Program-made: the position numbers and the translations under genes | Notes under the pieces: generated by a model | What the model was told of the DNA's origin: nothing | The model's input: the letters and a program-made list of their open reading frames with translations, nothing else | The model's database searches: none | Assembly (NCBI GenBank): GCA_007124095.1 | Contig: SLFU01000209.1 | Coordinates: forward strand, 1 to 59,253 | Length of the DNA: 59,253 nucleotides | DNA from: Gemmatimonadota bacterium | GTDB lineage: Bacteria > Gemmatimonadota > Gemmatimonadetes > Longimicrobiales > Gaopeijiaceae | Direction: 5' to 3' | Shown: one piece after another, positions 1 through 32,958 of the stretch | Numbering within the stretch: the first letter of the stretch is position 1 | Layout: each line of letters begins with the position of its first letter

Positions 1-1064
1 GGCCAGGGGTACGCGATCAGCGCGTCCATCGACTCGGGACCAACCTCCTCGACCTGCACACCGAGTCGCTTCCGGTGCAGGTCGAAGAGGTGCCGAATAA
101 GGTGAGGCACGTCCTCCATGCGCTCGCGCAGGGGAGGAAGATCGACCGTCATCACGGCAATCCGGTAGTACAGGTCCTCGCGGAACCGTCCCTCCTCGAC
201 TTCCTGTTCGAGCGATCGGTTCGTCGCGGCCACGATCCGAACATCCACCTTCCGGGTCCGCGTGTCGCCGACTCGACGAACCTCCCCCTCCTGAAGGACC
301 CTCAAGAGCTTCACCTGGAGGGATTCCGGAAGCTCGCCGACCTCATCGAGGAAGAGGGTCCCCCCGTCCGCGGCCTCGAAGAGGCCCTCGCGGTCCGCGT
401 CCGCGCCGGAGAAGGCGCCCCGCACGTGCCCGAAGAACTGCGACTCGAGAAGCCCCTCGGGGATCGCCCCGCAGTTGATGGGTACGAAGGGACGATCCGC
501 ACGATTGCTTTCCCGGTGGATCAAGCGGGCCAGGAGCTCCTTTCCGGTTCCTGTCGGCCCGGTGAGAAGGACGCTGATCGAATGCCGAGCCACCCGCGTG
601 GCAATGTCCAACGCTCGCACCATCCCCGGGGACCGAGCGATGATCTCGCCGAACTCGGTGTCCGCAGCCGGCTCCCTCGGCGACTCGGACCCGTCCTTCA
701 GGATCCGCTCCCGCTCCTCTACCTTCTTGAGCGTCATGAGGAGCTCCTCCGCCCCGAACGGCTTCGGGAGGAAGTCGGCCGCCCCCATCCGCACGGCCTC
801 GACGGCAAGGTCGGTCGTGCCATAGGCGGTCATGAGAATGACCGGGGCCACGCCCTTGGACTCCCGGTAGCGCTTGATGAAGCCCAATCCATCCAGCCCG
901 GGCATCCGCAGGTCCACCATCACGAGGTCGGGTGCGTTCTCCAACGCCTTCCGAAGACCCTCCTCGGCGTCGGCGGCGGAGCCGATCTCGTAGCCGGCGT
1001 CGTCGAGTATCAAGTCTAGGGAACGGCGGAGGCCGTCGTCGTCATCGATCACAAGAATCTTCAT
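1..1064 (-). CDS. sigma-54-dependent response regulator (NtrC/PilR-like); C-terminal HTH runs off the window
   Basis: Hand translation of the minus strand from ATG at 1064 gives [42 protein letters not shown] (receiver). This is followed by an AAA+ sigma-54 interaction domain: [18 protein letters not shown] Walker A, GAFSGA loop, [17 protein letters not shown]. The start overlaps the kinase stop as ATGA (1061-1064). It is absent from the ORF track because it is open at the window edge. Confidence 0.9.
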
Positions 1065-25104: not shown

Positions 25105-26358
25105 TCAGTAACGGGGGAGGCTCGGATCCACTTCTTCCTGCCAGCTCAGGATCCCACCGCGAAGATTCCAGACCTTCCGGAAACCGGCCTGCTGGAGCTG
25201 CTTCAGGGCCTTAGCGCTTCGCGTGCCCCCCTGGCAGTGCAGCACGATCTCTTCGGCCGAATCCAGCTCCGAGAGGCGTTCCGGGAGGGAATCGAGCGGG
25301 ATCAGCTCGGCTCCCAGGGGACCGAGGTTCACGATCTCCCACTCGTGCGGCTCCCGAACATCCAACATGCGGAGAGAGTCGCCGCGATCGAGGCGACCTT
25401 TCAGCTCGGTCGCGGAAATGGTCGGCACATCCTCGTCCGCCGCCTCCGGACCTTCCTCATAGGCAGGAACCCCACAGAACTCGAGGTAGTCAATGAGCTC
25501 GGTGACCGTGGGCTCATCTCCACACACCGGACAATCCGCGTTCTTCCGCAAGGTGAGGGTGCGCCACTCGAGGGCGAGGGCATCGAAGAGGAGGAGTCGG
25601 CCGATCAGCGGATCACCCTTCCCCAGGATCAGCTTGATCGTCTCGAGCGCCTGGAGAACGCCGATGATCCCCGGGAGCACCCCGAGCACCCCGCCCTCTG
25701 CGCAGCTCGGGACCATTCCGGGGGGTGGGGGTTCCCGGAAGAGGCATCGGTAGCAGGGGCCGTGGCGGGCGTCGAAGACCGAGACCTGCCCCTCGAACCG
25801 AAATATCGATCCGTAGACATTCGGCTTCCCGAGGAGGACACAGGCGTCGTTGACGAGATAACGGGTCGGGAAGTTGTCCGTCCCGTCCACCACCACGTCG
25901 TACGGCTCGAAGAGCTCGAGCGCGTTGTCGCTCGTAAGACGAAGCTCATGTCGATCGACCTGGACGTGAGGGTTCACGTCCTTCAACCGCTCCGTCGCGG
26001 AATCCAGCTTCGATCGGCCAATGTCCTTCGTTCCGTAGAGGATCTGACGCTGGAGGTTGGTGTGGTCGACCACGTCGTATTCCACGATCCCGATGCGTCC
26101 CACTCCGGCTGCAGCGAGGTAGAGCCCAAGGGGCGACCCCAAACCACCTGCACCCACCATCAGGACACTGGCGTCCTTCAGACGCCGCTGCCCCTCCATC
26201 CCGACCTCGGGCATGATGAGATGGCGGGAATACCGCTCGATCTCTTCGTTACTCAGTCCCGGCAACTCCCGGCCCGACCCGATTGCCCACGGTGGGGAAC
26301 CCCCGTTCTCGCTCGACGGACGAATCGGCGTCTCGGTCCCACTCTCGGATGCACTCAC
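25105..26358 (-). CDS. moeZ: MoeB/ThiF-type E1 adenylyltransferase fused to a rhodanese domain (MoeZ-type)
   Basis: YSRHLIMPEVGMEGQRRL..VLMVGAGGLGSPLGLYLAAAGVG..DHTNLQRQ..CYRC...CPVC. The C-terminal rhodanese carries the active-site loop CQGGTRS. Confidence 0.88.
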   Translation of the reverse strand: MSASESGTETPIRPSSENGGSPPWAIGSGRELPGLSNEEIERYSRHLIMPEVGMEGQRRLKDASVLMVGAGGLGSPLGLYLAAAGVGRIGIVEYDVVDHTNLQRQILYGTKDIGRSKLDSATERLKDVNPHVQVDRHELRLTSDNALELFEPYDVVVDGTDNFPTRYLVNDACVLLGKPNVYGSIFRFEGQVSVFDARHGPCYRCLFREPPPPGMVPSCAEGGVLGVLPGIIGVLQALETIKLILGKGDPLIGRLLLFDALALEWRTLTLRKNADCPVCGDEPTVTELIDYLEFCGVPAYEEGPEAADEDVPTISATELKGRLDRGDSLRMLDVREPHEWEIVNLGPLGAELIPLDSLPERLSELDSAEEIVLHCQGGTRSAKALKQLQQAGFRKVWNLRGGILSWQEEVDPSLPRY

Positions 26359-26373
26359 GAACCCTTTCTCACC

Positions 26374-27099
26374 TCAGATGTTGTGGAGCCCACACTCCAA
26401 TCGCACACTCCCGCGCCACCGCCCCGCCCGCTCGTGCTCACCAGGTTTGACCGGTGTCGTGAGCGGCGCGTCCCCTATGCTAGGATAACCCTTGTCGTGA
26501 AGGGGGTGATAGGGGAGGTCGTGACTCCGTATGAAATCCCATACCCGATCTCTCGTCCACCCTGCCAGCGGATTGATCTTGAGCCAGGTGCCCCGTTCGA
26601 GCACCGGAAGTTCCGCACGTGAGGGGGACTGATCTCGCCTCCGCCCCGTGATCCAACCATCCACCTCCCGCAGCGCCTTCCGCATCGGATCCTGTTTGGT
26701 CAGGCGATGATAGAGTTCGGCATCGCGCTCCCAGAGCCGAGGCCCATGGACCGCCTCGAAGGCCTCGCGCGAAGGCGCCGGCCGGTACACACGGAGATCG
26801 AGATCGTAGAGATCCCGCATCCGTTCGGCGTGCTCCAGGGTTTCCGGAAAGTGGTAGAGCGTGTCGATGAAGATGACCGGGAGGCGGATCCCCTCCTGGG
26901 ACAGGAGATGAATCAGAACCATCCCCCCAACCCCGAAGGTCGAGGAGAGGGCAACCCTTCCTTCCGGGAGGGCGTCGTCGGCCCAGCGAAGCGCCTCCCT
27001 CGGGTCCGCGCCGGCGAAGCGCCGATTTCGCGCGTCGACCTCTCTGGGACTCAGTTCCAACGCCGGGAGGGCAGTCGTATCGGTGGTCGTGCCCGTCAT
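26374..27099 (-). CDS. cysH: phosphoadenosine phosphosulfate (PAPS) reductase
   Basis: SSTFGVGGMVLIHLL..IFIDTLYHFPETL..KINPLAGWT.. with a C-terminal ECGLH. The CC..CxxC Fe-S motif of APS reductases is absent. GGAAGGAG lies upstream of the ATG. Confidence 0.9.
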   Translation of the reverse strand: MTGTTTDTTALPALELSPREVDARNRRFAGADPREALRWADDALPEGRVALSSTFGVGGMVLIHLLSQEGIRLPVIFIDTLYHFPETLEHAERMRDLYDLDLRVYRPAPSREAFEAVHGPRLWERDAELYHRLTKQDPMRKALREVDGWITGRRRDQSPSRAELPVLERGTWLKINPLAGWTRDRVWDFIRSHDLPYHPLHDKGYPSIGDAPLTTPVKPGEHERAGRWRGSVRLECGLHNI

Positions 27100-27164
27100 C
27101 TGTCTCCTTCCGTGAAGTTCCAGCGGTGGATGGCCAGAGGGCTCTCCACCTGATCCGTAGTACG

Positions 27165-27197
27165 AAAAAAGCCCCGACCTCTCTGCGAGGTCGGGGC
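27165..27197 (-). terminator. intrinsic terminator in the cysH leader (attenuator A)
   Basis: Minus strand: GCCCCGACCTC-gcaga-GAGGTCGGGGC followed by TTTTTT. It ends 65 nt upstream of the cysH ATG and starts 28 nt after the stop of the Cys-rich leader ORF. Confidence 0.8.
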
Positions 27198-27225
27198 CGA
27201 AGATTCAGCGCGATGTCTCTTGTGT

Positions 27226-27312
27226 CTACGCGCAACACCTCCCGGACCCACCCCGCAGGGGGATCTGACAGCAGCAGCACATAGCACAGCAAAGAGTGAA
27301 AGCGCGCTTCAT
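27226..27312 (-). CDS. Cys-codon-rich leader peptide (28 aa) of the cysH-moeZ operon
   Basis: Hand translation gives ATG AAG CGC GCT TTC ACT CTT TGC TGT GCT ATG TGC TGC TGC TGT CAG ATC CCC CTG CGG GGT GGG TCC GGG AGG TGT TGC GCG TAG, which is MKRAFTLCCAMCCCCQIPLRGGSGRCCA (8 Cys of 28). GAGGA lies just upstream. There is an alternative internal start at 27282. Confidence 0.55.
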   Translation of the reverse strand: MKRAFTLCCAMCCCCQIPLRGGSGRCCA

Positions 27313-27405
27313 TTTCCTCGTCGACTCCCAGGTCGTTGAAATCGGAGAGTGAGCAGACGAACCAGCTTCTCTCGGTGAGGAGTTTATCCGCATCCCCGGA
27401 TCAGG

Positions 27406-28878
27406 TCAAGTGTGCTCCCGAGCTTCCGAAATGAAGAGGGAGCATGGTTCCGGGCAAGGTACCCCCTGCGAAGGCCTCGCAGGCACTCCGAAGGAAGGTC
27501 GCCAAACCGGAGTGCGGAGGCAGCGATCCGCAGCGCAGACGGTCTGTGTGAGCCGCTCCAGCTCCGAGTCGGACATCCCCTCCAACCCGGCGTAGATCCC
27601 CGTTTGCCTTCGGGCAACCTCTTCGAAAGAGCGCGGGGAAAGGCCGCCCGTTCGACCCAGATACCAGTGCACCGGAGCCACCGGGTAGAGGTGCGCATAG
27701 ACCTCCCACACCTCCGCTTCGTCCAGCCCGGAGAAGCGCCATCCCCGGCGGAGGCCGGGAGCGGTCCGGACCGGCCGATGATCCCCGGTTTCCGTCGTGG
27801 CCCCGAGCCCGACAGCTCCGTCGGGGGTCTCCACCCTCCTCAGTTCCGATCGGGATCGCTCGCGGTCGAGATGATGCCGAATCTCGAAGCACCCTTCCTC
27901 GCCGGGTCGCACGAGCGTCTCGAGGAAGCTCCGACCTTGGGGGCCCGCGGACCGCAACCACTCCCCGAACGCTTCACGAGCCCTGGCGGAGACCGGAGGG
28001 GAGGAGGAGGAGTCCCGACCGGCTCCCGGAGTTTCCGGACGGGCTTCCCTTCGTGCCTCCTGCTCCACAAGCTGAAGGACCACCTCGACCATCGCGGGAT
28101 GGGGGCCGACCGGCTTTCCGTACCAGATGGTCGTCTCTCCGCGCCTTGTCCGCCCCCCGGTGAGTGCGAGATCGTCGGGAATTGTCGTCCCGGCATGCCA
28201 CCCTTCCGCGATGAAGAAGGGGACCACGATTACGTTGCGCACCCGTTCTCCGTCGAGAACCTCGGCCAGCCGTGGCTCCTGGTCCAGAAAGGCGGGAATC
28301 ACGCTCCCGTACGATCCCTCACGCCGCAGCGCCTCGACGATCGCCCGCGTGGTCCTCCCGGAATCCGGGTGCCGGTTCGTCCCGTGCCCGGCCACGACAA
28401 GAGTCGCTCCCGCCTCTTCCTCCGCGGAGAGGGACGCCGCTTCCCGGGCCCGCTCCATAACGACCTGGCTCATCCGTGGATGAGTGCCCACTGCGGGACA
28501 CTCCCTGATTCGCAGATCAGGCCGCGCAACGAGGGTGCGGTCCAACGCCAGCTCTCTCGGGACCACTCGGTCCGTGAAGTACCCTGTGCTCGTGAACACC
28601 GGAACGACGAAGACCTCGGAGCGCTCGACGAGATGGAAAGCCTGATGCAGCTGCGGCTCCTCCTTCCAAAACGCCACCCGGACCTCCCCGAAGCTCCCCC
28701 TCGCCCGGAGGCGTCGAGCCAGCTCGTGCACCGGCCGGGCCGAGGCCGGACTCAGGTGGGATCCATGACCCACCAGAAGGACGCAGCACTCGAGCCGATC
28801 GGAGAGGGGTCCGGGACCTTCGGTAATGGACGGGTCGATCCTTGACAAGGTGGAATTACCTCCTCTTCTTTTACTCAT
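27406..28878 (-). CDS. double CbiX (sirohydrochlorin chelatase) domains fused to a DR2241-like Fe-S domain
   Basis: There are two CbiX-type repeats: VLLVGHGSH..VVPVFTSTGYF and LVVAGHGTNRH..VVPFFIAEGWH. The C-terminal ~230 aa carry a Cys cluster (VCAADRC .. CPEPC) and resemble DR2241-family proteins from memory. Confidence 0.75.
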   Translation of the reverse strand: MSKRRGGNSTLSRIDPSITEGPGPLSDRLECCVLLVGHGSHLSPASARPVHELARRLRARGSFGEVRVAFWKEEPQLHQAFHLVERSEVFVVPVFTSTGYFTDRVVPRELALDRTLVARPDLRIRECPAVGTHPRMSQVVMERAREAASLSAEEEAGATLVVAGHGTNRHPDSGRTTRAIVEALRREGSYGSVIPAFLDQEPRLAEVLDGERVRNVIVVPFFIAEGWHAGTTIPDDLALTGGRTRRGETTIWYGKPVGPHPAMVEVVLQLVEQEARREARPETPGAGRDSSSSPPVSARAREAFGEWLRSAGPQGRSFLETLVRPGEEGCFEIRHHLDRERSRSELRRVETPDGAVGLGATTETGDHRPVRTAPGLRRGWRFSGLDEAEVWEVYAHLYPVAPVHWYLGRTGGLSPRSFEEVARRQTGIYAGLEGMSDSELERLTQTVCAADRCLRTPVWRPSFGVPARPSQGVPCPEPCSLFISEAREHT

Positions 28879-29043
28879 CGGTTCGAGGGTTGGGTCGAAC
28901 GGGTCTCGGTGAACACCGTACCCCCTCGATAAAGGTCACCTATCGCCCTGCCAAGTCGAGCTTGCGACGTTAGAAGCCCTGGCCCTCTCCGAGGCCGGGG
29001 CTCTTTTCATGGAATCCGACTCAACGTAGGAGCGACCACCCGC

Positions 29044-29916
29044 ATGGGCACCGTATTCCTGGTGGGGGCCGGACCGGGCGACCCGGACCTGCTCACCCTC
29101 CGGGCGCATCGCCTTCTCCAAAGAGCCGACGCCGTCGTCTACGACGCGCTCGTGAACTCGGAAATTCTGGAGCTCGCCCCGACCCGCGCCGGTCGATTCG
29201 ATGTCGGCCGGCGAAAAGGGGAGAAGCGGATCGCCCAGGGAGACGTGAACGATCTCCTCATCCATCTCTCGGGATCCCACGAGGTGGTCGTCCGGCTCAA
29301 GGGCGGGGATCCCTTCGTCTTCGGCCGCGGAGGGGAGGAGGCGCTCGCACTCCGGGCGGCTGGGGTGCCCTTCGAGGTCGTGCCCGGAGTAAGCGCGGGA
29401 ATCGGGGCGCTGGCATACGCAGGCATCCCTCTGACCCATCGCGGTGTCGCCTCGTCAGCCACCTTCCTGACCGGGCATCGAGTCCTGCCCGCAACAGGAG
29501 ATCGGGAAGGAGTATCCGCCGTCGGAAGTGAGGACCGGACCCTCGTCATCTTCATGGGGCTCTCGCGGCTCGAGGAGATCGCCTCGGAACTGATCCGTGG
29601 CGGGCGCTCTCCGAAAACCCCCGCGGCCATCGTGGAATGGGGGACCTACCGGGAACAGCGAACCGTGACCGGCGATCTCCGCACCCTCCCCGAACGCGTC
29701 CGCACAGCCGGCATCTCCGGTCCCTCCCTGATCGTCGTGGGCGAAGTCGTGCGTCTGCGCAGCGAAGTCCGTTGGTATAGCGAAGGAGCTGAGCAGGCAG
29801 ATTCGCCGGAGCGATCATCGGACCCGCCCGGACGGAAGGAGCCCGGCCAAGGGAGTCGCCCCGCGGAGGGGGACTGGACAGTCGTCCCCACTCCGGGAAG
29901 CGCCTTCGGCGACTGA
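29044..29916 (+). CDS. cobA: uroporphyrinogen-III C-methyltransferase (SUMT)
   Basis: GTVFLVGAGPGDPDLLTLRA..ADAVVYDALV..VVRLKGGDPFVFGRGGEE..VPGVSA. A ~45-aa low-complexity C-terminal tail follows. Confidence 0.9.
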   Translation: MGTVFLVGAGPGDPDLLTLRAHRLLQRADAVVYDALVNSEILELAPTRAGRFDVGRRKGEKRIAQGDVNDLLIHLSGSHEVVVRLKGGDPFVFGRGGEEALALRAAGVPFEVVPGVSAGIGALAYAGIPLTHRGVASSATFLTGHRVLPATGDREGVSAVGSEDRTLVIFMGLSRLEEIASELIRGGRSPKTPAAIVEWGTYREQRTVTGDLRTLPERVRTAGISGPSLIVVGEVVRLRSEVRWYSEGAEQADSPERSSDPPGRKEPGQGSRPAEGDWTVVPTPGSAFGD

Positions 29917-29961: not shown

Positions 29962-30207
29962 CTATGGGGGGGTCAGCTCGAAGTGGGTGTAGTTCTTGGC
30001 AATATACGAGGTCCACTCCTCCGGCACGTCCGTGTCGGGAAAGATCGCCTGGACAGGGCACTCCGGCTCACAGGCCCCACAGTCGATGCACTCGTCCGGA
30101 TGGATGTAGAACTGATCGTCGGATTCGTAGATGCAATCCACCGGACATACGTCGACACAGCTCGCATCCTTGGTGTCTATGCACGGCTCGGTAATGATGT
30201 ATGTCAT
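29962..30207 (-). CDS. 7Fe-type ferredoxin (3Fe-4S plus 4Fe-4S)
   Basis: [25 protein letters not shown] ... [12 protein letters not shown]. Confidence 0.9.
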
Positions 30208-30212
30208 GGGAT

Positions 30213-30791
30213 CTATTTTTTCCTTTTCCCCGAAGGGAATTCGGCCTCATTCAGGACCCGTCCGGGCCCCTTCGCGCCTCCGGTTACACCACCGGAATCC
30301 CGACGTGCCCCCCGAACGTGTCCAGTGGGAGGGTCGGCGCGGGGGATCTCCCGGACACTGCCTCCGGGTTCCGGATCCCGGCACCAGGCCCGGATCCGCG
30401 GAGGTTCGGAGCCCCGGGTGAACCCCGCGATCACCCATACCGTGTGGGGCCAGAGCTCCATGAACCGTCGATCCACGGGAGAGGGTACCGGTTCGCTATC
30501 GGGGTGGGTGTGGTAGAACCCCACCACCTCCTCTTCGGATTCACGGAGGGACTTCTCGACCTCCAGGAGGCGAAGCGGATCGATCATGAATCGATTCCGT
30601 CGCCTCTCGGGAGGCTCGGTGTTGGGCGTGGGGACGATCGAGGTCACAAGCACGACCCCCTCCGCACTTCTCCGACCGACGAGGAGGCCGCACGCCTCCT
30701 CCGCGGCCGCAGCGCGAGCCTCGGCGACGACTGCGTCCCCCACCTCCTCGAACCAGGCCCAGCCCGTCACACGCGAGGGAGTGCGGATCAA
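30213..30791 (-). CDS. JAMM/MPN+ (Mov34) metallopeptidase
   Basis: EACGLLVG ... [17 protein letters not shown] matches the E..HxHx7Sx2D motif. I propose the TTG start at 30791, which lies 4 nt after the carrier-protein stop and has GGGAG upstream. The track start at 30893 overlaps the carrier gene. Confidence 0.8.
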
Positions 30792-30795
30792 TCGC

Positions 30796-31077
30796 TCACT
30801 CCCGGCCCCCTGCGATCGAGGGAACGATCGAAACCTCGTCTCCTTCACTGACTGGGGTCTCGAGCTCCTTCTCGTAACGGATGTCGGTGCCATTCACGAA
30901 GACGTTCAGGAACTGGCGAAGCTCGCCCCCCTCCTCCGTGATCCGCGCCAGCAGATCGGGATTCTCACGTCCTACGTGAGCCAGCACGTCACGCACCGTC
31001 GCGCCCTCCGCTTCCAGCTCCCCACGACCGTGGGTCAGCTTCCTCAGGGCACTCGGCACCCGGACCGTCACACTCAT
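30796..31077 (-). CDS. MoaD/ThiS-family sulfur-carrier protein ending ...AGG-RE
   Basis: MSVTVRVPSALRKLT..FLNVFVNGTDI..GDEVSIVPSIAGGRE. The AAGGAG element favours the third ATG (31077), but 31083 and 31086 are also possible. Confidence 0.8.
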   Translation of the reverse strand: MSVTVRVPSALRKLTHGRGELEAEGATVRDVLAHVGRENPDLLARITEEGGELRQFLNVFVNGTDIRYEKELETPVSEGDEVSIVPSIAGGRE

Positions 31078-31149
31078 CGACATCATCTCCTTGCCGCATC
31101 TCACGAGTCTCCGGGGGCCCGGCGATATCCAGGGCATTCCCCGCACTTC

Positions 31150-32433
31150 TCATCCAACAGGCTCCTGCTGGCCCGCCTCGGCGAGCCGAACCACCTCCGA
31201 AAGCCTCGGGTCGATCGGTTCACCCAGCTCGAAGGTCGCTCGAGCCGCATTTGGGGTCTTCAGGCCGTTGCCCGTGATACAGAGCACGGTCGGCCCACCC
31301 TTCGCGAATCGACCCTCTCGCGCCAGCCGGGCCGCTCCGGCTACGACCACCCCGCCGGCCGTCTCCGTGAAGACCCCTTCGAGGCTGGCCAGCAACCGGA
31401 TGCCCTCCACGATCTCGTCGTCCGAGACCGCCTCGCCCCAGCCTCCGCTGTCGAGCATGGACCGGAGGGCGAAGGGGCCGTCTGCGGGGTTCCCGATCGC
31501 AAGCGAGCGAGCGATGGTGTCGGGCTTCCGGACCGGCTGGACACGACTTTCCCCCGCGTGAAGAGCATTGACGATGGGCGCACATCCCGAGGCCTGGGTC
31601 CCGAAGAGCCGCGGGGTCCGGGACTCAGCCACGAGCCCCACCTTCTCGAGCTCCTTGAAGCTCTTCTCCAGCTTCGTGATCAGGGAGCCGCCCGCCATCG
31701 GAGCCACGACATTCGCCGGCAGAGACCAGCCGAGCTGTTCGACGATCTCGAATCCGACCGTCTTCGAGCCCTCCGCATAATAGGGGCGCAGGTTCACATT
31801 CACGATCCCCCACCCGAACCGATCCGCGACCTCGGCACAGAGCCGATTCACATCATCGTATACGCCCTTGATGCGCACCAGTCGGGCTCCATGGACACCG
31901 GTGGCGACCACCTTCTCAGGTTCCAGGTCCTCCGGAATGAAGATCCACGCTTCCAATCCCGCAGACGCGGCCTGCGCCGCCACGGAGTTGGCAAGGTTAC
32001 CGGTGGAGGCACACCCCACCACAGAGATGCCGAACTCATGTGCGCGCTGGAGGGCAATGGCGACCACCCGGTCCTTGAAGGACTGGGTTGGGTGATTCGA
32101 AGAATCCGCCTTTATCCAGAGGTCCTCGATGCCGAGAGCGTCCCCGAGGCGCGGGGCCGGCAGGAGAGGGGTCCAACCAACCGCGTGTCCCCCCTCGGGA
32201 TCCCGCTCGATGGGAAGGAGCTCGCGGTAGCGCCAGAGATTGGTGGGCCGGCTGCGGATCAACTCCGGAGAAAGGGTGCCGTGGAGCCCCTCCAGGTCGT
32301 AGTCTACTTCGAGAGGTCCGAAACACTCCTCGCACACATGAAAGGGCCCCGCCTCCGTCACCGTCCCGCAGAGGCGACATCGAAGGGTGTCGAGGGTGCT
32401 GGAGGCCACCGGTCCGGTCTTCGTCTGTTTCAT
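31150..32433 (-). CDS. threonine-synthase-like PLP enzyme with an N-terminal zinc ribbon
   Basis: CRLCGTVTEAGPFHVCEECFGPLEV is a Cys4 ribbon. NHPTQSFKDRVV carries the PLP lysine. The tryptophan-synthase-beta fold is evident throughout. Confidence 0.85.
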   Translation of the reverse strand: MKQTKTGPVASSTLDTLRCRLCGTVTEAGPFHVCEECFGPLEVDYDLEGLHGTLSPELIRSRPTNLWRYRELLPIERDPEGGHAVGWTPLLPAPRLGDALGIEDLWIKADSSNHPTQSFKDRVVAIALQRAHEFGISVVGCASTGNLANSVAAQAASAGLEAWIFIPEDLEPEKVVATGVHGARLVRIKGVYDDVNRLCAEVADRFGWGIVNVNLRPYYAEGSKTVGFEIVEQLGWSLPANVVAPMAGGSLITKLEKSFKELEKVGLVAESRTPRLFGTQASGCAPIVNALHAGESRVQPVRKPDTIARSLAIGNPADGPFALRSMLDSGGWGEAVSDDEIVEGIRLLASLEGVFTETAGGVVVAGAARLAREGRFAKGGPTVLCITGNGLKTPNAARATFELGEPIDPRLSEVVRLAEAGQQEPVG

Positions 32434-32500: not shown

Positions 32501-32541
32501 AAACAAAAAAGCCCAGACCTCCATCGGGAGGAGGCCGGGGC
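32501..32541 (-). terminator. intrinsic terminator in the leader of the thrC-like operon (attenuator B)
   Basis: Minus strand: GCCCCGGCCTCC-tcccgat-GGAGGTCTGGGC followed by TTTTTTGTTT. It ends 67 nt upstream of the ATG at 32433. Confidence 0.8.
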
Positions 32542-32572
32542 TCGTTCAGCTCGTCGGATCCGTTGCTTGCTG

Positions 32573-32671
32573 CTAAGGCCCTCCGGACACGACCGTCCCC
32601 GCCCTGACCTCCTCGAGCGAGGAAGCCATCATGGAACAGCCGCACATGCTGATTGTGGCGGTTGCGGTCAT
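32573..32671 (-). CDS. Cys/Met-codon leader peptide of the thrC-like/moaD/JAMM operon
   Basis: Hand translation gives ATG ACC GCA ACC GCC ACA ATC AGC ATG TGC GGC TGT TCC ATG ATG GCT TCC TCG CTC GAG GAG GTC AGG GCG GGG ACG GTC GTG TCC GGA GGG CCT TAG, which is MTATATISMCGCSMMASSLEEVRAGTVVSGGP. The inner start at 32647 gives MCGCSMM... I see no strong SD, so the start is uncertain. Confidence 0.45.
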   Translation of the reverse strand: MTATATISMCGCSMMASSLEEVRAGTVVSGGP

Positions 32672-32958
32672 GTTGACGCTCGTGTCTGGCTTCTTTCGGA
32701 CTACAGCTCTCACGACCCGTGGGACGGACGGCCGCAGAAAGCACGGAACGAAACGCTATGCAACCACCCACCGCCAGTCAAGCCCCACCGGATTCGTTCG
32801 CCCCTCACGGAGGGAGGCCCGGCCGAAGATGATGACGATAATGAGCCTTGACAGCCCTCTCCATCCCGACCGAGCATACGGTACATCCTGAAGACATGCT
32901 GAAAGCGGGTCCAAGCGCCGCCAAGCCTTCGTTCCACTCTCCACGAGGTCAAATCACT

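Follow-up and report, generated by a model that had tools for sequence, protein, structure and literature searches.

A conserved polycysteine leader with an intrinsic terminator precedes cysH in Gemmatimonadota: a candidate ribosome-mediated attenuator

Organization of the cbiX-cysH intergenic region

The stretch of DNA analyzed here, referred to as the window, comprises 59,253 nt of contig SLFU01000209.1 from the Gemmatimonadota assembly GCA_007124095.1 and carries a short cysteine-rich open reading frame (ORF) followed by an intrinsic terminator directly in front of the sulfate-reduction gene cysH. The window has a G+C content of about 65%, and its CysH is most closely related to proteins from Gemmatimonadetes/Gemmatimonadota and Longimicrobium metagenome-assembled genomes (MAGs). 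All coordinates of the leader-cysH element refer to the minus strand. Upstream lies the cbiX-DR2241 gene (27406..28878), whose product combines CbiX, DR2241 and Fer4_23 domains, and a gap of 306 nt separates its stop codon from the ATG of cysH (26374..27099) at position 27099. The cysH product matches PAPS_reduct and the NCBIfam model for phosphoadenylyl-sulfate reductase (phosphoadenylyl-/adenylyl-sulfate reductase); the gene has a Shine-Dalgarno (SD) sequence, GGAAGGAG, at 27111..27104 and would be the first gene regulated in the mechanism proposed below. It is followed after 15 nt by a moeZ/moeB-like gene (25105..26358) encoding an adenylyl/sulfurtransferase with ThiF and Rhodanese domains. 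The two genes are presumably co-transcribed, and the same gene order is found in the related locus L005. These domain matches confirm the identities that an initial annotation, made from the sequence alone, had assigned to the flanking genes.

Within the gap, the leader ORF (27312..27226) comprises 28 codons and a TAG stop codon (27228..27226) and is translated into MKRAFTLCCAMCCCCQIPLRGGSGRCCA, a peptide with eight Cys residues. A first, putatively regulatory Cys pair is formed by codons 8-9 (27291..27286) and a second run by codons 12-15 (27279..27268), so that the conserved core motif (A)MCC-AMCC spans 27268..27291, while codons 26-27 (27237..27232) provide an extra Cys pair directly ahead of the stop. 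The SD-like sequence GAGGA (27319..27315) is located 2 nt ahead of the leader ATG at 27312. The intrinsic terminator (27198..27165) begins 27 nt past the leader stop and consists of the 12-bp stem GGCCCCGACCTC/GAGGTCGGGGCT (27198..27187/27181..27170), the loop GCAGA and a stretch of six T residues (27170..27165), beyond which the cysH ATG follows at a distance of 65 nt. The sequence statements of the initial annotation, comprising the ORF, GAGGA, the stem, the T stretch, the SD sequence, the ATG and the 306-nt gap, were all re-found.

A further feature that the initial annotation had not noticed is a promoter-like site at 27409..27381, predicted from its match to the consensus, in which TTGACC (27409..27404) and TAAACT (27386..27381) are separated by a 17-nt spacer. 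It is the sole sigma-70-like match within 26500..28000, and the stretch between terminator and cysH did not give any promoter-like match in the same search. The predicted -10 element ends 68 nt 5' of the leader ATG. The TGA stop codon of cbiX-DR2241 is situated inside the predicted -35 hexamer (TTGACC, 27404..27409), an overlap that is also present in L005.

Runs of at least three Cys codons are confined to the leader when all six frames of the window are considered. When the 306-nt gap was shuffled 20,000 times with its dinucleotides preserved, short ORFs containing at least four consecutive Cys codons appeared 3 times, and none contained eight or more Cys codons. The uniqueness of the run and this shuffle null, in combination with the conservation of the element, exclude a chance occurrence.

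Conservation of the leader among relatives

Comparison with cysH loci of relatives, whose CysH proteins are 62-77% identical, revealed the same element directly 5' of cysH in seven further distinct loci (L005, L008, L090, L091, L092, L093 and L094; cysH 63-77% identical), which together with the window form a core family of eight sequences. The leader peptides of the seven relatives read MKRQFSLCCAMCCCCQVRPRGGSGRCCA, MMKVAAMCCAMCCSLATLRRGGPGRRRV, MNRFTAMCCAMCCGQASPSRGGSGRHRA, MKATAMCCAMCCCLTPPRRGGSGRRRA, MRKTAAMCCAMCCCLAALRRGGPRRRRA, one further, TTG-started peptide and MAMTAMCCAMCSCPASPAGGGSRRHFA. A library scan of genome contigs with CysH yielded four loci, the closest of which (79% identical) ends 20 nt upstream of the match and is thus uninformative about the leader. 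The metagenome contigs contributed, among the matches listed, mostly distant cysH genes (38-63%), and most of these have no Cys leader within 500 nt. An nhmmer search with the eight-sequence profile against 100 loci and the window detected no further full-length copies, only terminator-like partial matches.

The reading frame, the positions of the Cys codons and the position of the stop are kept in all eight core sequences, with an overall length of 24-28 codons. Codons 8 and 9 encode Cys in 7/7 sequences that possess them, codon 12 encodes Cys in 8/8, and codons 13-14 do so in most. At the Cys codons the first two bases are fixed and the third alternates, with a TGC:TGT ratio of 21:21; selection acts here on the Cys codon as such. 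Ala codon 10, positioned between the Cys pairs, likewise varies among GCT, GCA and GCG. The stop, either TAG or TAA, occupies one fixed alignment column, and L093 carries the sole ORF indel of the alignment, which with its 9 columns preserves the frame. Thus, the conservation of ORF and Cys codons on which the initial annotation had made its proposal depend is found in seven more loci, with synonymous TGC/TGT exchanges, a fixed stop and the same terminator. Codons 26-27 form a Cys pair only in the window and in L005, whereas RR, HR, RC or HF is encoded elsewhere, and this pair is therefore probably not essential. Codons 20-25 ('RGGSGR') are largely conserved at the nucleotide level, some third positions included, which fits a constraint on the 3' half of the ORF as RNA.

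The terminator is equally well preserved. Each of its 12 stem pairs is formed in 8/8 core sequences (100% paired), including one compensatory exchange from A-U to G-C in L093, and the consensus GGCCCCG(A/G)CCTC...GAGG(T/C)CGGGGC(C/T) starts 22-27 nt past the stop in all eight. At the other end of the element, a promoter-like TTGAC-17-TA(G/A)A(C/A/G)T is located 5' of all eight core leaders, and a purine-rich motif resembling GGAGG, GAGGA or AAGG precedes the start codon in 6/8. In L094 (2206..2246) the predicted -10 element (TAAAGT) ends about 9 nt ahead of the leader ATG and an SD sequence is not visible; translation of the L094 leader may start on an mRNA that is leaderless or nearly so, similar to the mycobacterial case.

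In L093 a methyltransferase gene replaces cbiX upstream of the element, indicating that the element is linked to cysH rather than to the upstream gene. Terminator and cysH ATG lie 23-122 nt apart, and the spacer contains no conserved sequence. In L091 and L005 they are separated by 23 and 29 nt, respectively, which leaves practically no room for a separate promoter, so that cysH would have to be transcribed through the hairpin. A separate cysH promoter, which the initial annotation had named as a finding that would speak against attenuation, is therefore supported neither by these short gaps nor by the window, where no promoter-like site follows the terminator.

Alternative RNA structures

Besides the terminator, the leader transcript contains segments that can engage in alternative pairings. 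Region 1, a C-rich segment located right after the Cys run (27271..27259), can form a helix with the following region 2 (alignment columns 60-72 with 77-89), for which 81% of the alignment cells are paired and the register slips among the core sequences. Region 2 is the G-rich segment GCGGGGUGGGUCCGGGAGG (27256..27238; codons 19-25, encoding 'RGGSGR'; columns 75-93) and is proposed to represent the 5' strand of an antiterminator. Its putative 3' strand, region 3 (UCUUCGGCCCCGACCUCGC; 27203..27185; columns 129-147), comprises the terminator 5' arm and the preceding 5 nt. Between both strands, a small 5-bp hairpin GCGCG/CGCGC (27233..27208) with the stop codon in its loop would form the apex of the antiterminator. 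The apical hairpin is paired in 95% of cells among the eight core sequences and displays no covariation.

RNAalifold, run on the eight-sequence alignment truncated before the terminator 3' arm, yielded one consensus alternative, in which columns 75-93 pair with columns 129-147 via 17 pairs and the stop-codon hairpin is positioned at the apex. Standard pairs occupy 95% of the cells of this 17-bp helix, compared to 36-56% after displacement of the partner strand by 1-3 columns, and the helix occupies 10 out of 12 nt of the terminator 5' arm. Across the core sequences, the calculated energies range from -20 to -34 kcal/mol for the antiterminator including the apical hairpin and from -25 to -30 kcal/mol for the terminator. 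On these models, the two helices are mutually exclusive and each is feasible. The initial annotation had placed the antiterminator in a different register with 8 of 9 paired positions. This register is possible, since 94% of its cells are paired in the eight sequences, but with -0.1 to -9.4 kcal/mol it is weak. In energy the 17-bp register is far better, and the 17-bp helix is preferred as the possible antiterminator, although covariation backs neither register.

When folding of the growing transcript was simulated as far as the terminator loop, with the footprint of a ribosome on the Cys run masked, the G-rich segment captured the 5' arm in 8/8 sequences. If the ribosome was placed at the stop or omitted, the simulations yielded the terminator, and region 1 (27271..27259) paired with the G-rich segment. 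In the minimum free energy (MFE) fold of the window, the cysH SD sequence is unpaired with the leader.

Cysteine leaders in other lineages

In distant lineages, leaders with Cys runs and a terminator 22-33 nt past the stop likewise precede cysH or siroheme-synthesis operons. At least six further leader families with Cys runs were found, the runs reading CCCCCC, CCCRCSC, CCCC or CC; they have no evident sequence similarity to the core family. Their peptides are MTLTPAMAMCCCCCCADPRNRGKERPA in L014, MILNSCCCRCSC(L/P)SPVGCRGDVV in L010/L011, MNMRTSATGCCCSCMEARLGPRATGRVVLTLYT in L067, MSIRRAAACCCCMEARTGPRADGRVALTLSHH in L078, ...M(V/A)CCMAI... in L095/L097 and MKFASLHKCCMQCICRCAPL... in L040, where a 318-aa ORF lies between the leader and cysH. 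A terminator follows each of MTLTPAMAMCCCCCCADPRNRGKERPA, MILNSCCCRCSC.. and the leaders with ..GCCCSCMEAR.., ..AAACCCCMEAR.., ..M[VA]CCMAI.. and MKFASLHKCCMQCICRC... In L096 (Longimicrobium), MNHGMACCRCRM... is located upstream of sir-cysH, and the terminator finder made no clean call there.

A scan for a Cys leader with a terminator was positive in 14/86 cysH-upstream regions versus 1/86 of their reverse complements, and in a scan of 1.05 Mb, which covered all loci plus the window on either strand, 18/20 matches adjoined sulfur-assimilation genes. In nascent-fold simulations, most of the other families tested are again predicted to pair part of the ORF's 3' half with the terminator 5' arm. 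The clearest case is L010/L011, in which an in-ORF CCGGUGG repeats the terminator 3' arm. The closest named relative of the L067 CysH is a protein from an Acidobacteria MAG (71% identity); the theme of Cys leaders thus probably extends beyond Gemmatimonadota, although the assignment of L067 rests on one name and is tentative.

Some of these loci display additional features. The lower-GC lineage represented by L040 (1177..1410) has a promoter TTGACT-17-TATATT, a leader MKFASLHKCCMQCICRCAPLARARSPQGVQIDL followed by its stop codon, and a long terminator. In L078 (2039..2500) a small ORF (MFEETSTRSVVKSLSWRIIATL...), which apparently encodes a membrane protein, separates the Cys leader and its terminator from cysH. 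In L095 (1243..1017, minus strand) and L097 (1224..1037, minus strand), a second leader, ...M(S/R)MCPMCCCACSA...LMR with its stop codon, lies on the opposite strand before a TP_methylase operon, together with a terminator CCCGGTCTCG..GAGGCCGGG and a run of seven T residues. In both loci, the TP_methylase leader and the cysH leader point away from each other, so that one lineage appears to carry two Cys attenuators back to back.

Proposed mechanism and alternative explanations

The attenuator interpretation put forward in the initial annotation is supported by the conservation of the element, the promoter-like site, the spacing of the terminator and the existence of other Cys leader families. 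We therefore consider it likely that the cysH leader acts as a classical ribosome-mediated transcription attenuator that reads the charging of Cys-tRNA(Cys). Transcription would start from the dedicated promoter about 60 nt 5' of the leader ATG, and a ribosome would translate the 28-codon leader while RNA polymerase proceeds. With plentiful Cys-tRNA(Cys), the ribosome would pass the Cys codons and reach the stop; region 1 could then re-pair with region 2 behind the ribosome, or the ribosome itself would cover region 2. The terminator 5' arm would thereby stay free, the 12-bp hairpin with its U-tract would form, and transcription would end before cysH. When Cys is scarce, the ribosome would stall at the MCC(C) run (codons 12-15) and cover region 1, leaving region 2 free to pair with the emerging terminator 5' arm in the interrupted 17-bp helix capped by the stop-codon hairpin. 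With the terminator blocked, the polymerase would read into cysH-moeZ, and sulfate reduction as well as sulfur-carrier activation would be raised. Codons 12-15 are probably the critical ones, since they are the sole run kept in L093 and since a ribosome stalled at codons 8-9 would miss region 1.

Several observations weigh against this mechanism. The weakest link of the four-segment logic is the 2:3 helix, which lacks covariation: the covariation of the antiterminator does not exceed the level of shuffled alignments, the one pair that varies on both sides has its like in the shuffles, and most pairs are invariant. Relative to shuffled upstream sequence, the antiterminator z-scores range from -0.5 to -3.5, with one positive, and are modest because G/C-rich sequence pairs readily. 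Moreover, the antiterminator register is not unique, as the 8-of-9 register is also compatible. The core family is limited to eight sequences, and the spacing between leader SD and ATG is short (2-3 nt). In addition, homologous modules in front of moeZ in L099 and L101, described below, contain no Cys codons, and one leader of the PALP operon has a single Cys. Modules of this type thus occur without a Cys run as well, so that a different sensor could act on the RNA part they have in common. Sequence anatomy, conservation, selection on the Cys codons and the feasibility of mutually exclusive helices are documented here; transcription start, leader translation, stalling and Cys-dependent read-through are steps that we infer.

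Alternatively, the Cys-rich ORF could sense tRNA charging but have as its output the initiation of cysH translation by sequestration of the SD sequence, Rho-dependent termination or mRNA stability, and the hairpin would then serve mainly structure or stability. The U-tracts of several relatives are imperfect (GUUUUC, and GAUUUGUUUUU in L090), and the sole experimentally dissected Cys leader does act on translation (10.1101/834739). However, a GC-rich 12-bp hairpin with a U-rich tract is kept in every family, the terminator-cysH spacer lacks conserved sequence and ranges between 23 and 122 nt in length, and the leader does not pair with the cysH SD in the MFE fold of the window, so that we regard a different output as improbable. 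A similarly small probability is assigned to sensing of a ligand or an RNA-binding protein by the G-rich segment and the terminator, in the manner of a riboswitch or TRAP, with the ORF being incidental or secondary. Such a role would agree with the nucleotide-level conservation of the G-rich segment, which includes third codon positions, with the Cys-free moeZ modules of L099 and L101, and with a terminator-like hairpin lacking a Cys ORF in the 5' untranslated region (UTR) of the TP_methylase gene. A requirement to base-pair with the terminator arm can, however, account for the conservation of the G-rich segment, and the synonymous variation of the Cys codons is typical of selection on codon meaning. 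Moreover, the element has no match to an Rfam family, and the dissimilar leader families have in common only Cys run, ORF and terminator and share no RNA motif.

Since the hairpin lies 3' of cbiX on the same strand and TGCTGCTGCTGT is a trinucleotide repeat, the hairpin could simply be the terminator of cbiX-DR2241 and the Cys-rich ORF a by-product of a (TGC)n-like repeat. Against this stand the retention of ORF and Cys codons with synonymous changes in eight sequences, in which the repeat is mostly impure, the persistence of the element next to cysH where the upstream gene differs (L093), the conserved promoter between the end of cbiX and the leader, the approach of the terminator to within 23 nt of the cysH ATG, and the shuffle null of 0/20,000. 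The plain cbiX terminator was rejected on the grounds of conservation, promoter and spacing, and we deem it very unlikely. Equally unlikely is a function of the 28-aa Cys-rich peptide itself as a metal- or redox-active micropeptide placed near sulfur genes for its supply. Non-Cys residues (AM..AM, RGGSGR) are indeed kept within the core family, and Canestrari et al. consider such roles possible for some of the short ORFs in mycobacteria. Yet the conserved C-terminal part coincides with the RNA pairing segments, the leader families have nothing in common but their Cys runs, the peptide has no match in Pfam or NCBIfam, and the terminator at fixed spacing between the ORF and the next gene would be left unexplained.

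Relation to known attenuators

Classical attenuators are represented by trpL, hisL, leuL, pheL and thrL of E. coli/Salmonella. The cysH leader resembles them in combining a short ORF with clustered end-product codons, four successive segments predicted to be able to pair as 1:2, 2:3 and 3:4, and, as the 3:4 helix, an intrinsic terminator before the first biosynthetic gene. As in trp, the terminator of the cysH leader would be no less stable than the antiterminator, the two calculated energies being comparable, and control would thus be kinetic. Differences lie in the amino acid that would be sensed, cysteine, and in the hosts, which belong to Gemmatimonadota and other uncultured lineages. Moreover, the ORF runs 13-16 codons past the Cys run, placing region 2 inside the ORF, the stop codon is situated in the loop of a small apical hairpin, and there is neither sequence similarity nor an Rfam match. 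A permissive E-value scan of 26000..29000 against Rfam gave only sub-threshold noise, e.g. NsiR1 with E = 0.27 on the terminator, and six leader peptides searched against Pfam and NCBIfam gave no match.

The first predictions of Cys leader ORFs concerned Actinobacteria and included no terminator (Seliverstov et al. 2005, PMC1262725). In mycobacteria, polycysteine short ORFs regulate Cys genes as a 'Cys ribulon' (Canestrari et al. 2020, 10.1101/834739), and M. smegmatis Ms5788A is leaderless and acts by translational attenuation through SD sequestration, with no intrinsic terminator (10.1101/834739). The elements described here share with the mycobacterial ones that unannotated short ORFs with consecutive Cys codons are located upstream of cysteine/sulfur operons, that pausing at Cys codons would be the signal, and that several operons per genome possess leaders, here cysH and the thrC-like/ThiS/JAB operon, and TP_methylase in L095 and L097. 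In contrast to the mycobacterial ORFs, promoter prediction indicates that the cysH leader is not leaderless but has a 5' UTR of about 60 nt, an SD-like motif and a conserved intrinsic terminator; SD sequestration does not fit this leader, with which the cysH SD is unpaired in the MFE fold and whose spacer to cysH is variable. Closer in design are uORFC-8-2 upstream of cysS in Rhodobacterales, a predicted Cys uORF with terminator (Brewer et al. 2021, PMC8632094), and the predicted attenuator of Deinococcus deserti cysS with its 10-aa Cys leader (PMC4007540). Both are predicted ribosome-mediated attenuators with tandem Cys codons, and uORFC-8-2 features a terminator stem with U-run. Unlike the cysH leader, they would control cysteinyl-tRNA synthetase, contain two Cys codons, occur in other phyla and are known from prediction. 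Compared by description, uORFC-8-2 has two Cys near positions 14-15 and a two-stem structure, whereas the cysH leader displays CC-AM-CC(CC) at codons 8-15. The statement of the initial annotation that Cys-codon attenuators are rarely annotated is fair, even though cases were already known (10.1101/834739, PMC8632094, PMC1262725, PMC4007540). A literature search of incomplete coverage did not reveal any terminator-type Cys leader upstream of cysH or in Gemmatimonadota. In conclusion, the element is real and conserved but conceptually not surprising: the mechanism is of a known type, while the cysH leader family and its hosts appear to be undescribed.

To our knowledge, cysteine is among the few amino acids for which no classical terminator/antiterminator leader-peptide attenuator has been demonstrated. 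The cysH leader offers a compact candidate of about 150 nt that is directly testable in reporters. It also shows how Gemmatimonadota may regulate sulfate assimilation, and no report of such RNA-level regulation for this phylum was found in the literature searched. That Cys leaders without evident sequence similarity recur before cysH and siroheme operons suggests a widespread class overlooked by annotation pipelines, whose gene-calling thresholds exceed the length of these ORFs. Such elements could be searched for by a simple rule: a Cys run, 13-21 codons, a stop, and a terminator after 22-33 nt.

Related modules in the sulfur gene cluster

On the minus strand of the window, the cluster comprises a thrC-like PALP gene, a ThiS/MoaD-like gene, a JAB gene and a ferredoxin gene, followed beyond a divergent TP_methylase gene by CbiX-DR2241, the leader, cysH and moeZ. 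Judged by its gene content, this would be a sulfur amino-acid pathway of the sulfur-carrier-protein type combined with siroheme synthesis. The PALP operon (29962..32433, minus strand) encodes a 427-aa threonine-synthase-like PALP protein, a ThiS/MoaD-like carrier, a JAB protease and a ferredoxin, a set that we take to resemble CysO/CysM/Mec-like or MetM/MetO-like cysteine or homocysteine synthesis.

Upstream of this operon a second leader-terminator module is located (32505..32790, minus strand), which, like the TP_methylase hairpin described below, came to light via partial terminator-like nhmmer matches. Its leader ORF (32671..32573, minus strand) encodes MTATATISMCGCSMMASSLEEVRAGTVVSGGP followed by a stop, a promoter-like TTGACT is found near 32782, and the terminator (32541..32505, minus strand) consists of GCCCCGGCCTCC..GGAGGTCTGGGC at 32541..32511 and six T residues. 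The leader of the window contains the motif M-C-x-C-x-M-M. Homologues in L099 (MLKTVLSPRYMCRCRMTT...) and L101 (MPETVVPIGYMCRFPMTT..., with one Cys) share with it the motif YMCR(C/F)xM, and both retain the terminator and a G-rich segment able to pair with the terminator 5' arm. The module appears homologous to the cysH leader and would constitute a second attenuator of the window, whose leader may sense Cys and Met together. The presence of a conserved leader and terminator of its own at the PALP operon supports control of several operons by related attenuators.

In L099 (13675..13933) and L101 (13673..13928), moeZ forms a separate unit behind its own leader of about 260 nt. The leaders contain a conserved 19-codon ORF, MPDLMMLRGRAGNRRVQMK and MPDLPMSGGRGRNRRLRMR, respectively, and a terminator GA(G/A)CCCCGGACTC..GAGCCGGGGT. 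Their layout is like that of the cysH leader, and they include several Met and Arg codons and none for Cys.

These modules invite a broader and clearly speculative proposal, on which we remain doubtful: in Gemmatimonadota, in a lineage that probably belongs to Acidobacteriota and in further uncultured groups, assimilatory sulfate reduction could be governed mainly by terminator-type Cys attenuators that arose repeatedly as unrelated families, with one module gating several operons of one cluster and its specificity being reprogrammed by codon swaps. If so, homologous modules would gate cysH-moeZ (eight Cys codons) and the thrC-like/ThiS/JAB/ferredoxin operon (M-C-x-C-x-M-M), next to the Cys-free moeZ leader of the relatives, forming a 'ribulon' that works by transcription termination instead of translation. 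It would possibly replace a CysB-like transcription factor, for which no search was made.

The hairpin in the 5' UTR of the TP_methylase gene (28976..29008, plus strand) consists of GCCCTGGCC and GGCCGGGGC, separated by 8 nt and followed by TCTTTTC, and precedes the TP_methylase ATG at 29044. It is situated within the divergent cbiX/TP_methylase intergenic region, oriented with TP_methylase, and has no Cys ORF beside it. L090 retains the hairpin (about 678..640, minus strand), there with a tandem GTAGTTGAG repeat ahead of it.

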